From Nanobdellota archaeon (GTDB lineage: Archaea > Aenigmatarchaeota > Aenigmatarchaeia > QMZP01): a stretch of 64,000 bases of DNA. A program made the position numbers and the translations under genes. This document shows positions 7,841-11,164 of this stretch, one piece after another (position 1 is the first letter of the stretch; the number at the start of each line of letters is the position of its first letter). The notes beneath the pieces are model-generated. The model saw only the letters and a program-made list of their open reading frames with translations. It made no database searches and was not told where the DNA came from. Location: assembly GCA_043814765.1 (NCBI GenBank), contig JBDRJQ010000029.1:96001-160000 (forward strand), read 5' to 3'.

Positions 7841-7856
7841 AAAACCATTTATATAA
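7841..7856 (+). promoter_or_regulatory. BRE/TATA promoter of the nrdD operon
   Basis: AAAACCA followed by TTTATATA (7848-7855); expected TSS near 7875-7880; SD-like GAGGT at 7927-7931 before ATG 7939. Confidence 0.7.
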
Positions 7857-7871
7857 CTTCAACCTAATAAA

Positions 7872-7887
7872 CTACTACATCTTGGGG
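7872..7887. promoter_or_regulatory. NrdR box 1 (candidate operator overlapping the predicted TSS)
   Basis: ctaCTACATCTTGggg; core 7875-7884 fits the CwAnATnTwG core of the NrdR consensus acaCwAtATaTwGtg. Confidence 0.8.
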
Positions 7888-7903
7888 TATTTCAGTAGTG
7901 TTT

Positions 7904-7919
7904 ATACAAGATGTAGTAT
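7904..7919. promoter_or_regulatory. NrdR box 2 (32 bp downstream of box 1)
   Basis: ataCAAGATGTAGtat; core 7907-7916 is the exact reverse complement of the box 1 core. Confidence 0.8.
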
Positions 7920-7938
7920 TTATTTAGAGGTAGTAAAA

Positions 7939-10900
7939 ATGAAGTGTCCTTTCTGTTTTGATGAAGAAACACGGGTTATAGATAAAAGAGAAAGCGGAGA
8001 AAAAGGTATCAACAGGCGAAGAAGAGAGTGTTTGAGTTGTAAAAAAAGATTTACTACTTATGAAAGAATTGAAGGTGCCATAAGCAAGATTACTCATATA
8101 AAAAAAAGGGACGGCCAGATAGTTGAATTTGATCAAAACAAAATAACAGATGCCATATGGAAAGCTGTACAGGCTGTTGGCAATAAAGATAAAGAAGTAG
8201 CTAAAAAGGCTTCTGATAATGTTGTTAAAATTCTAGAAGAAAGGTTTGAAGGCAAAATTCCTGAAGTGGAACAAATTCAGGATATTGTTGAAGAATCGTT
8301 AATAGAAAACGGTTTAGCAGAAACTGCTAAAGCGTATATAATATACAGACAAAAAAAGATACAGGTAAGGGACACTAAAAAAACCTTAATAGATGTTATA
8401 GATACTATATCCGATTACCTTGATCAAAAGGATTGGAGAGTAAGAGAAAACAGCAATGAGCAATACTCTTTTTCAGGACTTCTATTATACACTGCTGGAA
8501 AGGTCATGGCAAACTATAATTTAACAGAGATGTACACCCCGGCAATGGCCGATGCACACAGGGCAGGTTATTTGCATATACATGATTTGTCACATGGTGT
8601 TATAGGATATTGTGCTGGTTGGTCGTTAAAGAATCTTTTATCCTGGGGGTTTGGTGGAATACCTAACAAAGTAGACTGCAAACCATCAAAACACATGAGT
8701 ACGGTAGTGCATCAAATGGTTAATTATATTGGATGCTTGCAGATGGAGTTTGCAGGTGCTCAGGCCTTTTCAACAGTTGATGTATTGCTAGCGCCCTTTG
8801 TAAGGGCAGATCAGATGACATTTAAACAGGTAAAGCAGGCTATGCAACAGTTGATTTTCTCGTTGAATATCCCTTCTAGATGGGGATGTTTTAGTAAGGA
8901 TACTGAATTATTAACAAATAAGGGATGGATGTTAGGAAAGGATCTTGAAAAGGGAGATATAATAGCAACTTTTAATAAAGACACTGAAGAGATAGAGTAT
9001 CTTCCTGTAAAAGAAATGACAAAATATAATTACAAAGGAAAGATGTGTAGATTGAAAAATAGGATTACGGATCAACTGGTTACACCAAATCATAGGATTT
9101 TGAGAAGAATACATAATTATAAGGAAGGCGTGTCTGAATCTAAGTATGTTTTTGAAGAGGCAGATAAATTAAAGACAAAGATTCCATTAGTTCCTCTTGG
9201 AGGAAAGTTTAAAGGTCTTGACCTTGATAAGGATCTTGTCAAATCACTTGCTTGGATAATATCAGAAGGCACACTTTGCAAGAATGAAAGAATCGGTATA
9301 CACCAATCATTTGTAAAGAATCCTGAAAATTGTCAAGATATACGAGACTCTTTAGATTCTATTGGTGTTGATTTTGATGAACAGATAAAACAATCTGGTT
9401 TCACAGAAAGATGGGATTGTTTGCGCATCAGAATGAGCAGACCAGATTCAAGAAATTTCTATGAAAATTATTTTCCTGATTATGTAAAAAGTATTCCAGA
9501 CGAACTTAGAAACCTTTCTACTCCGTTGGCCAGAACATTTATTGATACTTATATGAAAGCAGATGGATGGTATCCTGAAGGTAAAATATACACAAAAAAT
9601 AAAGACGATATAGATGCTTTCCAAGAAATTATAGCTAAAGCTGGTTGGGGAAGTACAGTATTGAAAAATAAAAATGGTATTTATGTGATAAGAGTAATAA
9701 AACACAATCACACTCAGATAACTTCTATAGATAATGAAGATTATGATGGACTTGTTTGGTGCCCGACAACAGACAACGGGACTGTTATAGTTAGAAGGAA
9801 AGGTAAGGTTTTTATAAGCGGCAATTCACAGTACCCATTTTCAAATCTAACATTTGATTGGTCAATACCAAAGGATCTTGAAAACGAACACGCAATTGTC
9901 GGAGGAACACCTCAAAGCTTTACTTATGGGGACCTTCAGGAAGAAACTAATATGATTAACAAAGCTTTTTTAGAAGTTATGCTTGAGGGTGACGCAAATG
10001 GAAGAACATTCTCGTTTCCAATACCAACATATAACTTAACAAAGGATTTCGATTGGGATGGTGAAAACGCAAATCTTCTGTTCGAAATGACTGCAAAATA
10101 CGGAACTCCTTATTTTCAAAATTATATAGGAAGTAATCTGGATCCAAGCTCTATAAGGGCAATGTGCTGCAGATTAAACATAAATCAAAAAGAGCTCGTA
10201 CAGAGACCAGGGCACATATTTGCAGCAGGCGATTCTACTGGTTCAATTGGTGTAGTAACAATGAATCTGAACAGGCTGGGTTTTGAGGCCAAAGATGAAA
10301 GCGAGTTTCATAATAAAATTGAACATTATATGAACATGGGTAAAGATTCTCTTGAAATTAAAAGAAGAGTTGTTGAGAAAAACTTAAAAAATGGGTTAAT
10401 GCCTTATACAAGAAGATATCTAGGGTCATTCAGTAATCATTTCTCTACAATAGGTTTGGTCGGAATGAACGAAGCGTGTCTAAACCTTATTGGAAAGGAT
10501 ATATCCACACCTGAAGGTAAAACTCTTACAATAAACATGTTGAAGTTTATGAGAGATGTTATCGGAGGTTATCAGCAAGAAACTGGTAATCTTTACAACT
10601 TGGAAGCAACGCCCGCTGAATCGGCTTCATATAGACTGGCAAGAGCTGATAAAAAAATGTATCCGAACATAATTACAAGCGGTGATAAACAACCCTTCTT
10701 AACAAACTCCACTCAGCTTCCTGTAAATTTTGGTGATGATGTCATATCCGCTTTAGAACATCAAAATGATATACAGTATTTATACACAGGAGGGACAATA
10801 TTTCATACATTCTTAGGTGAAAGGGTTAGCAGTGGAGAGTCATGCAAAAATCTTGTTAGAAAGATAGCAAACAACACTAGAATACCATATTTCAGTATAA

Positions 10901-10986
10901 CACCAACATTCAGTGTTTGCCCTGTTCATGGTTACATAAAAGGTGAACAGCATGTTTGCCCCTACAACAATAATGGAGGTAAATAA
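7939..10986 (+). CDS. nrdD: Anaerobic (class III) ribonucleoside-triphosphate reductase large subunit with N-terminal NrdR-type Zn ribbon and ATP cone; intein-containing; lacks glycyl-radical C-terminus
   Basis: Start reassigned to ATG 7939 (SD GAGGT). MKCPFC...[21 protein letters not shown] ATP cone, HIHDL, YCAGWS, AMCCRL finger loop, [30 protein letters not shown]. Confidence 0.95.
   Translation: [1015 protein letters not shown]
8887..9825 (+). mobile_element. Intein (313 aa) with LAGLIDADG homing endonuclease in NrdD
   Basis: [15 protein letters not shown] ... VTPNH (block B), LAWIISEG and TYMKADG endonuclease motifs, ...[12 protein letters not shown]; excision restores PSRWGSQYPFSN. Confidence 0.92.
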
Positions 10987-10987
10987 T

Positions 10988-11164
10988 ATGGAAAATGAAA
11001 AATGCAACAGAGAAACAGAAGTCTATTCAAGAATAGTCGGTTATTTTAGGCCTATAAAAAATTGGAATGACGGAAAGAAAGAGGAATTCGCACACAGGGT
11101 AACTTTTAGCGAAAAGAAAGCTCTGGAAAATGAAATTAAAACAAAAGTCGCTGTTACCCATTAG
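10988..11164 (+). CDS. Separately encoded NrdD C-terminal glycyl-radical domain (58 aa)
   Basis: EVYSRIVGYFRPIKNWNDGKKEEF carries the RxxGY glycyl-radical motif; own SD GGAGGT at 10975-10980; ATG two bases after the nrdD stop. Confidence 0.9.
   Translation: MENEKCNRETEVYSRIVGYFRPIKNWNDGKKEEFAHRVTFSEKKALENEIKTKVAVTH

Follow-up and report, generated by a model that had tools for sequence, protein, structure and literature searches.

The window examined here (64,000 nucleotides of contig JBDRJQ010000029.1, positions 96,001 to 160,000) contains an operon in which the body of a class III ribonucleotide reductase (nrdD) is followed by a separate mini-gene for the glycyl-radical domain and then by the activase gene nrdG (Table 1). 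The nrdD body begins with ATG at 7939, encodes 1015 amino acids including an intein, and is closed by a TAA stop codon at 10984-10986. The intein boundaries were set by alignment to intein-free relatives; the insert starts with Cys, ends with Gly-Asn and is followed by Ser, and no Pfam intein model matched it. Also, nrdG is interrupted by a 497-residue intein with a LAGLIDADG endonuclease (nucleotides 11422-12912). A profile search found no class I or class II reductase in the same 859-kb genome, and the nrdD-body/glycyl-radical/nrdG operon is predicted to encode the sole ribonucleotide reductase of this organism.

Table 1. Features of the nrdD-nrdG operon and its promoter (positions in the window)
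Feature	Position	Strand	Basis or remark
TATA box TTTATATA of the nrdD promoter	7848..7855	+	read from sequence
NrdR box 1 CTACTACATCTTGGGG	7872..7887	.	10.9 bits
NrdR box 2 ATACAAGATGTAGTAT	7904..7919	.	16.7 bits
Shine-Dalgarno-like GAGGT, 7 nt before ATG	7927..7931	+	read from sequence
nrdD body ORF	7939..10986	+	NrdR ribbon, ATP-cone and class III reductase core
NrdR-type zinc ribbon, residues 1-42	7939..8064	+	PF22811
Single ATP-cone of reductase type, residues 53-139	8095..8355	+	PF03477
Intein in NrdD, residues 317-629	8887..9825	+	comparison with intein-free relative P0006
GGAGGT ribosome-binding site of the small glycyl-radical ORF	10975..10980	+	inside last nrdD-body codons
58-residue ORF, glycyl-radical domain of NrdD (RIVGY motif)	10988..11164	+	+1 frame
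nrdG activase (radical SAM)	11218..13395	+	PF04055 match

An earlier, sequence-only reading of this DNA had proposed that the first 45 residues of NrdD resemble the N-terminus of the repressor NrdR and run in frame into an ATP-cone and the reductase core. Indeed, the 45-residue peptide is the exact start of the ORF, and a single uninterrupted frame was obtained from the ORF reading, Pfam and NCBIfam alike; when residues 1-150 were scanned, the NrdR-ribbon and ATP-cone models both matched. The ribbon covers the entire PF22811 profile (positions 1-42 of 42, E 1.5e-15, 57.2 bits against a cut-off of 27.2), the cone matches PF03477 with an E-value of 5.4e-21, and the NRDD match is split into two stretches (E 1.2e-153). 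The protein scored 949.5 bits against the equivalog model NF006126 for ribonucleoside triphosphate reductase (cut-off 548) and 447.5 against TIGR02487 (cut-off 326.35), while the whole-protein NrdR model TIGR00244 gave 70 bits, below its cut-off of 124.65. An MCCRL finger loop is located at residue 742, with M, C, C, R and L each conserved in at least 90% of a 48-row alignment, and we take its cysteines to be the catalytic finger-loop cysteines of NrdD. From the equivalog score, the finger loop, the RIVGY motif and the adjoining activase, the reductase of the fusion looks active. Furthermore, the first internal Met of the nrdD body lies near residue 189, so that internal initiation cannot supply an enzyme devoid of the ribbon. 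Among the top fold matches were NrdD of P. copri (PDB 8P23/8P28) and 9D3X of S. thermophilus, in which an ATP-cone likewise precedes the NrdD core but a DNA-binding domain is lacking; a further difference is that the glycyl-radical domain forms a chain of its own in the window.

The ribbon carries two CxxC motifs (C3, C6, C31 and C34) as well as R12, D15, R17, R26-29 and R37, and aligns without gaps to NrdR proteins of known structure, those of E. coli (residues 1-44, E 7e-12) and S. coelicolor (1-43 to 1-43). According to the legend of Fig. 3 in PMC9110341, R12, D15, R17, R26-29 and R37 are the DNA contacts of S. coelicolor NrdR, all of which are identical in the ribbon of the fusion; the four Cys and these contact residues are thus shared with the stand-alone NrdR proteins (PDB 7P37/7P3F, 9FXK and 9GEX). 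Across 48 one-cone fusions, the four Cys, R17, R26-29 and R37 do not vary at all, D15 is conserved in at least 90%, and position 12 is the exception among the contact residues. Unlike NrdR, which is a separate protein of 150-200 residues, the ribbon here is joined to an active-looking enzyme, the NrdR-type cone is absent, and the promoter is archaeal and TATA-driven.

The sequence-only reading had marked 7841-11164 for the candidate reductase, which calls for a correction: the nrdD ORF ends at 10986, and 10988-11164 is a distinct small ORF in a different frame. The C-terminal glycyl-radical motif is not on the NrdD chain; the RIVGY motif is instead found in the 58-residue ORF, which matches PF13597 at profile positions 526-562 of 562 (E 1.1e-10). 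We considered a frameshift or sequencing error at 10984-10988 and ruled it out, because the GGAGGT-stop-T-ATG layout is common to the window and the same-genus genome G312, the proteins P0001 and P0002 end where the nrdD body ends, and 23 of the 48 genomes of the order with a match likewise have the radical domain in a short open frame. Among the 23 junctions read, 22 have the body ending at a stop codon with an ATG-led small ORF after it, and public gene callers have registered 44 small homologues of 43-85 residues. The NrdD glycyl-radical tail is therefore, as judged from these sequences, a separate gene of 58 residues, which is new here; a literature search found no split class III glycyl-radical gene. 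GrcA/YfiD, a spare part of pyruvate formate-lyase, can be compared with this separate ORF. In NrdJa/NrdJb, furthermore, a C-terminal zinc-finger-bearing piece of the reductase is described as encoded in a second chain (PMC9669993), and a conserved C-terminal zinc-finger piece with its own start appears to exist here too; NrdJa/NrdJb is, however, a class II enzyme without glycyl radical, whereas the 58-residue piece bears the radical glycine of class III. Judging from the mini-gene, a class III reductase may be able to function in two chains, a point of relevance to the installation or renewal of the oxygen-sensitive radical domain.

In the database, the combination of ribbon and reductase proved to be a large family of at least 120 proteins, 117 with NRDD and three with class I/II domains, and in both groups the ribbon is placed directly before a cone. 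Within the phylum, the fusion accounts for 39 of the 150 PF22811 matches listed (39 genomes). The 120 fusions listed can be categorized into two forms: namely, 75 with one cone, as in the window, and 45 with two. When compared with the two-cone fusions, the cone in the window shares 55-65% identity with their second cone but shows only weak similarity to the first, which is of the NrdR type; reductase-type and NrdR-type cones are 18-19% identical and separate in a tree with a support of 1.0. On these comparisons, the single cone is the enzyme's own, reductase-type cone, and the NrdR-type cone is absent, which is also new here. At stand-alone nrdR loci of relatives, nrdD starts -1 to +58 nt after nrdR in 17 of 24 cases. 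Adjacent nrdR-nrdD genes and two-cone fusions occur in the same archaeal order and share the ribbon, the boxes and the NrdD subfamily with the fusion in the window, which differs from them in having lost the NrdR cone, with the ribbon directly on the enzyme's cone. The relatives show a route from adjacent nrdR-nrdD through the two-cone to the one-cone fusion. Where nrdR abuts nrdD so closely, a one-base error could fuse the two, and the window might then hold an assembly or frameshift artefact joining a separate nrdR to nrdD. We give this explanation practically no credence: the form in the window has no NrdR cone and hence is not a read-through of nrdR-nrdD, the one-cone form comes from many sources, and the conservation of the architecture, seen also in G312, already refutes an artefact.

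The sequence-only reading had further asked whether a stand-alone nrdR is absent from fusion-bearing genomes. In the 859-kb genome, which is 88% complete so that the absence is less than certain, there is one PF22811 match and one ATP-cone, and no other NrdR ribbon, ATP-cone or reductase was found. The 38 other fusion-bearing genomes likewise contain no stand-alone nrdR, each having exactly one PF22811 match among the matches listed.

Two NrdR-box-like sites had been noticed between the TATA box and the ATG, and both have all six conserved positions (C4, A6, A8, T9, T11 and G13). Each box is 16 bp with a linker of 16 bp in between, box 2 starting 32 bp past the start of box 1; the pair matches the known NrdR operator in its 16-bp boxes, its linker (15-16 bp), its conserved positions and its place in a reductase promoter. 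The bit scores come from a weight matrix for which 38 other loci were used and the window was excluded. When this matrix was run on the whole genome of 859,335 bases, seven pairs (both boxes at least 7 bits) were found over 84 spacings, and the nrdD promoter was the sole pair at a spacing of 30-33. A pair at C31:2039/2081 with a 42-bp spacing is within a coding region and was judged a chance match; two strong boxes, each standing alone (C28:71192 and C29:171814), roughly equal the number of 20-bit sites expected by chance in 859 kb. The nrdD pair is kept in G312. A search of sequencing runs gave no RNA run and one DNA run, possibly from the source sample, which contains a fraction of 0.07 of the words. 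Two 151-nt contigs from it are identical to 7700-7830 and 7838-7988 and thereby span the promoter with its two boxes as well as the start of the coding region; its other four pieces were short or diverged, and in this run no identical contig crossed from ribbon to cone or reached over the nrdD stop at 10984.

Among relatives, paired boxes do co-occur with the fusion, and every computational test proposed in the sequence-only reading thus gave a result in favor of that reading. A strict pair, with each box scoring 7 bits or more at a spacing of 30-33 and no farther than 400 nt upstream, was present in 21 of 39 fusion loci, where shuffles gave 0.015 loci; 11 loci have one strong box with a weak partner, and seven have no box inside 400 nt. 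The distance is 30-32 bp in 21 of 23 pairs in fusion loci, and 14 of the 19 one-cone loci have a pair (L066 being counted as the two-cone type). By a count made by hand, the strict pattern was found in 67 of the 173 genomes that have the ribbon, against 8 of the 198 that lack it, and a reversed control pattern in 38 of the 371 genomes of the phylum, but the genomes of relatives are not independent and such counts overstate the statistics. In 18 of 26 fusion loci, the 45 nt that precede box 1 contain an octamer resembling a TATA box (7 or more of 8 positions matching); shuffles gave a mean of 3.67 loci and a maximum of 9 in 500, and a control stretch 90-135 nt upstream gave none in 23. We regard it as rather improbable that the ribbon is a relic, or serves another role such as protein contacts or RNA binding, with the boxes being relics or bound by another factor. 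The seven loci with no detectable box would fit such a ribbon, whereas the invariant DNA-contact arginines and Cys residues, the persistence of pairs at canonical spacing across families, their tracking of ribbon presence among genomes, and the lack of any other NrdR-like domain in fusion genomes all speak against it.

Taken as a whole, the sole reductase probably represses its own promoter, with its ribbon on the boxes and under the control of an ATP/dATP-responsive cone. We infer from sequence the DNA binding by the fusion, the repression, and the control of both by ATP/dATP. The N-terminal ribbon would recognize both boxes just 3' of the TATA box; box 1 begins 16 nt past it and should hence cover the transcription start, and from this position a filled operator would be expected to block assembly of the archaeal transcription machinery. 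Since NrdD is a dimer and NrdR is described as requiring one ribbon pair per box, and both boxes, with oligomerization needed to hold the two, two enzyme dimers would fill the operator. On DNA, NrdR is reported to form a tetramer whose two pairs of ribbons are separated by 80 A (PMC9110341). A complex prediction with two copies of residues 1-150 and Zn gave a score of 0.22 and a mark of 0.42, values that weigh neither for nor against such pairing. In the fusion, the ribbon pairing known from NrdR might be obstructed by the reductase core. Alternatively, a free repressor fragment might be released, for instance if the linker between ribbon and cone were cleaved; its residues 44-46 have a pLDDT below 50 in a structure model. 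This seems very unlikely, given that there is no evident protease site or second start (the first Met being far inside the protein), that the ribbon alone would be without a cone, and that both boxes are held through oligomerization in NrdR.

As for nucleotide control of the proposed repression, the sequence-only reading had suggested one ATP-cone for both jobs, an idea strengthened by the sole cone being of reductase type and the NrdR-type cone being absent. As this sole cone is the activity cone of the enzyme itself, its ATP/dATP state would be expected to set catalysis as well as DNA binding, with high dATP favoring a tetramer with ordered cone pairs. In P. copri NrdD, dATP binding is described to shift dimers to such tetramers (PMC11226230). 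It is possible, though somewhat less likely than not, that dATP acting on the shared cone silences catalysis and also assembles two dimers whose four ribbons clamp the boxes over the archaeal transcription start, and that the radical tail could be replaced after oxygen damage. The low identity between this cone and NrdR cones would, on the other hand, count against cone-gated DNA binding. The ribbon may bind the boxes without nucleotide control, negative autoregulation then depending on enzyme concentration and the cone serving catalysis only; the low-confidence linker would suit this explanation, as would the lack of an NrdR-type cone, since in NrdR it is this cone that gates the binding to DNA. 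We nonetheless consider it unlikely, because the ribbon is always directly before a cone, even in the three class I/II fusions, dATP alters the oligomeric state in the solved relative, and two boxes call for more than one dimer.

NrdR and the ATP-cone of the reductase are the two known layers of dNTP control, on transcription and on enzyme activity, respectively, and they appear merged here into one polypeptide with one sensor. PutA and BirA are trigger enzymes, in which a single polypeptide catalyzes a metabolic reaction and also represses the operon that encodes it; their folds and DNA-binding domains are unrelated to those of the fusion, and to our knowledge no trigger enzyme of this type is a ribonucleotide reductase. 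Self-regulation is known for nrdR-containing operons (PMC9110341). A literature search combining trigger enzymes and ribonucleotide reductase gave nothing relevant by title and abstract. The novelty supposed in the sequence-only reading stands insofar as we found no paper on the ribbon-reductase fusion, which the supplements of NrdR genome surveys (PMC9110341, PMC13584703) could nevertheless mention; the architecture itself is already in databases, where part of the family bears the JGI name [quoted passage not shown]. If the shared-cone reading is true, the enzyme would itself be the repressor that senses nucleotides, and nucleotide metabolism would have a trigger enzyme of a kind not described for it so far. 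The 58-residue radical subunit might, in addition, be replaced without remaking the 700-residue intein-bearing body. The fusion would also offer a natural system for studying how a cone converts nucleotide state into oligomeric state and DNA binding, and its promoter presents a bacterial-type putative operator placed downstream of an archaeal TATA box. The host is a tiny DPANN archaeon (Nanobdellota archaeon). The NrdR ribbon is found in 173 of the 371 genomes of its phylum, suggesting that NrdR-based control is common in DPANN archaea.

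The proposal of the sequence-only reading that an NrdR zinc ribbon, an ATP cone and the class III reductase NrdD run in one frame held in a Pfam analysis: the N-terminal peptide that it quoted is exactly the start of a 1015-residue ORF carrying all three, and the NrdR ribbon and ATP-cone models both matched within residues 1-150. The protein exceeded the cut-off of the NCBIfam reductase equivalog NF006126 (949.5 vs 548 bits) and fell below that of the NrdR equivalog TIGR00244 (70 vs 124.65 bits). A check of whether NrdD is intact showed that it is.

Features of the nrdD-nrdG region (window numbering, or residues of the 1015-residue ORF)
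Feature	Position	Strand or frame	Details
TATA box	7848-7855		TTTATATA; upstream of nrdD
NrdR box 1	7872-7887		CTACTACATCTTGGGG; 10.9 bits, matrix built without window
NrdR box 2	7904-7919		ATACAAGATGTAGTAT; 16.7 bits, matrix built without window
GAGGT	7927-7931		between box 2 and ATG
nrdD start codon ATG	7939
nrdD body ORF	7939-10986	+	1015 residues
Zn_ribbon_NrdR (PF22811)	residues 1-42		Pfam, complete 42-position profile, E 1.5e-15, 57.2 bits, cut-off 27.2
ATP-cone	residues 53-139		Pfam, E 5.4e-21
NRDD	two stretches		Pfam, E 1.2e-153
NrdD intein	residues 317-629, nt 8887-9825		313 aa, splits NRDD into two stretches; boundaries from comparison with intein-free relative P0006
GGAGGT	10975-10980		precedes ATG 10988 of 58-residue ORF
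nrdD body stop TAA	10984-10986	+
Glycyl-radical mini-gene	ATG at 10988; 10975-11164 with GGAGGT	+1 frame	58 residues; RIVGY motif; PF13597 positions 526-562
NrdG intein	nt 11422-12912		497 aa, with LAGLIDADG endonuclease

The window ribbon aligns without gaps with the NrdR structures solved for E. coli and S. coelicolor. As described in a figure legend (Fig. 3 of PMC9110341), cryo-EM of S. coelicolor NrdR shows backbone contacts with DNA for R12, R26-29, and R37 and major-groove contacts for D15 and R17, and these residues are 100% identical in the window protein. Across 48 aligned one-cone fusions, furthermore, no variation is seen at C3, C6, C31, C34, R17, R26-29, or R37 or in the FTT-E motif, and the ribbon is therefore unlikely to be a relic. 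Because the first internal Met is found only at around residue 189, the ribbon is expected to be present on every enzyme molecule. As modelled by AlphaFold2 for residues 1-330 (mean pLDDT 72.8), the ribbon is three-stranded, the linker (residues 44-46) is of low confidence, and the cone is confident (pLDDT ~90); Foldseek matched the model to cone-bearing class III reductases and also to NrdR chains, the latter with TM 0.46-0.52 on the NrdR side across 140-152 columns.

When proteins of 558-1777 aa were searched with residues 1-150, 371 hits were obtained, and all of the 120 listed were fusions of PF22811, ATP-cone, and a reductase domain (ten proteins were checked). Ribbon-plus-NrdD proteins were thus collected in number, with NRDD in 117 of these listed matches and class I/II domains in three; their named sources are Woesearchaeota, Nanoarchaeota, and Aenigmarchaeota, and several carry the JGI label [quoted passage not shown]. 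The three with class I/II domains (P0066, P0093, and P0095; ~809-903 aa) have the ribbon and a reductase-type cone on a class I/II-type reductase (Ribonuc_red_lgN + lgC), and the ribbon-cone module has hence been joined to more than one reductase class. In the phylum of the window, PF22811 was matched in 173 of 371 species genomes; among the 150 matches listed, 39 including the window were within open frames no shorter than 325 aa, and 111 were in frames of 145-230 aa, namely ordinary stand-alone NrdR. Such stand-alone NrdR is usually encoded immediately upstream of nrdD, often 0-4 nt apart (loci L002-L031 of phylum relatives). As the earlier reading would predict, no stand-alone nrdR was found in the fusion genomes: a single PF22811 match was found in each of the 38 others and in the window's genome (88% complete), which also has a single ATP-cone match and in which no class I/II reductase was found.

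In terms of prior knowledge, the presence of NrdR in archaea is recognized (“22% of archaeal genomes” in the retrieved text of PMC13584703), and the ribbon in 173 of 371 genomes of this DPANN phylum contrasts with older papers, whose retrieved passages describe NrdR as rare or absent in archaea. A ribbon-reductase fusion is not mentioned in the retrieved text of the NrdR and reductase literature searched, and further searches, including one on NrdR in DPANN archaea, returned no literature. The parts (NrdR ribbon, boxes, and reductase cone) are known, but their arrangement, in which regulator and target are merged, is uncharacterized.

The type of the cone takes the analysis further than the sequence-only reading. 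Among the 120 fusions listed, two cones occur in 45 and a single cone in 75, and the cones fall into two classes with 18-19% identity between them (support of 1.0 for the split in a tree): one comprises the cones of stand-alone archaeal NrdR and the first cone of two-cone fusions (52-60% identity within the class), and the other comprises the second cone of two-cone fusions, single cones including that of the window, and the cones of class I/II fusions (57-72%). Since the single cone of the window protein belongs to the reductase-type class, NrdR's own cone has been lost, and the ribbon is, judging from this classification, attached directly to the enzyme's allosteric cone. A gene that opens with a reductase-type cone starts -1 to +58 nt after nrdR at 17 of the 24 stand-alone loci. 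The fusion likely arose from adjacent nrdR and nrdD genes through a two-cone fusion to the one-cone form, and relatives retain these stages.

The two NrdR-box-like sites noticed between the TATA box and the ATG proved to be well formed. According to the retrieved text of a 2026 mutational study (PMC13584703), NrdR sites are made up of a pair of partially palindromic 16-bp boxes separated by 15-16 bp, with C4, A6, A8, T9, T11, and G13 highly conserved; the window boxes each carry the full six, with a linker of 16 bp. A weight matrix was built from the 38 other fusion loci with the window excluded (consensus, ACACAATATATTGTGT). In the organism's assembly of 859,335 bases, this matrix found 12 single sites that reach 12 bits or more and, with 84 spacings tried, seven pairs with each box at least 7 bits; the sole pair at a spacing of 30-33 is that of the nrdD promoter, and an earlier matrix agrees. 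A strong lone box (ATACAACATATTGTGT, 20.7 bits) was also noticed at G000:C29:171814 on the window's contig, ~11.8 kb beyond the window end; it ends 2 nt before an ORF that resembles, at its N-terminus, a family B DNA polymerase, has no partner box 31-32 bp away, and may be either chance or a second target.

Paired boxes indeed co-occur with the fusion. Strict pairs (each box at least 7 bits, spacing 30-33, within 400 nt upstream) were found in 21 of 39 fusion loci, against a mean of 0.015 loci in composition-preserving shuffles, and 21 of 23 pair distances were 30-32 bp when distances of 10-80 bp were considered. In eleven further fusion loci a single strong box is present, and a half-box often lies 31-32 bp upstream of it; no box was found within 400 nt upstream in seven of 39; of the stand-alone loci, 9/24 have a strict pair upstream of nrdR. 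In the 371 genomes, a strict pattern, in which two sets of the six conserved positions are separated by 21-22 nt, matched 75, compared with 38 for a reversed control pattern. The pattern occurred in 67 of 173 genomes with the ribbon vs 8 of 198 without it; these are hand counts that include matches not near nrdR and related, non-independent genomes, but the direction of the association is clear. A TATA-like octamer (at least 7/8) precedes box 1 by up to 45 nt in 18 of 26 loci (3.67 in shuffles; 0/23 in a control stretch further upstream), and the operator therefore lies downstream of the TATA box and upstream of the start codon, a position from which an archaeal repressor would prevent recruitment of the polymerase. 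A short A/T motif, approximately (G)GnCAATTA or TAATTA, follows the TATA box and precedes box 1 at L033, L034, L050, L051, L055, L063, and the window (7860-7871) and could be a promoter-proximal element, an initiator element or an operator extension. At seven fusion loci (L038, L043, L046, L048, L053, L054, and L056), the box pair is 115-310 nt before the start codon, implying long leaders, and that of L038 contains a tandemly repeated segment.

In the retrieved text of PMC9110341, the DNA-bound form of NrdR is a tetramer that puts a pair of ribbons on each box, the two sites being 80 Å apart, and the retrieved texts of PMC9110341 and PMC13584703 report no binding to a lone box. For a solved cone-bearing NrdD, the retrieved text of PMC11226230 describes that dATP drives dimers toward tetramers with ordered cone pairs, and also that the glycyl-radical domain turns mobile and activity is lost. 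We consider it probable that the fusion represses its own promoter. More tentatively, with the odds somewhat against this full nucleotide-coupled version, the simplest model is that two enzyme dimers would be joined via their cones at high dATP, so that four ribbons would occupy the two boxes and nrdD and the activase gene nrdG would be shut off; catalysis would be inhibited by the same dATP signal. Because every enzyme molecule bears the ribbon, enzyme abundance would itself feed back on the promoter.

The glycyl-radical domain of the window's NrdD is, furthermore, encoded separately by a 58-residue ORF, of which the ATG follows the body stop after one base. The layout is identical in a same-genus genome (G312), and NrdD of two database relatives ends at the same residue. 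In 23 of the 48 genomes of the order with a match, the open frame that holds the radical domain is at most 122 aa long; in 22 of 23 junctions read, the body stop is followed 1 to ~250 nt later by an ATG-led small ORF, and for the other junction the fetched stretch did not include the body end. Public gene calls also include 44 glycyl-radical mini-proteins of 43-85 aa. The break in the window interrupts the C-terminal zinc site, with the body ending after C-x2-H...C and the small ORF giving the next Cys, and the metal may thus tie the two chains together. By analogy with GrcA, which is a comparable part for pyruvate formate-lyase, the 58-aa chain could serve as an exchangeable radical-bearing subunit. 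Our literature search yielded no publication on a radical domain split off from a class III enzyme, and the nearest precedent found was NrdJa/NrdJb, a split enzyme of class II.

An intein is inserted in nrdD and another in nrdG. That of NrdD terminates in Gly-Asn instead of His-Asn and was not matched by Pfam intein models. A second intein is present in NrdD of a same-genus relative (P0002, a 1443-aa protein).
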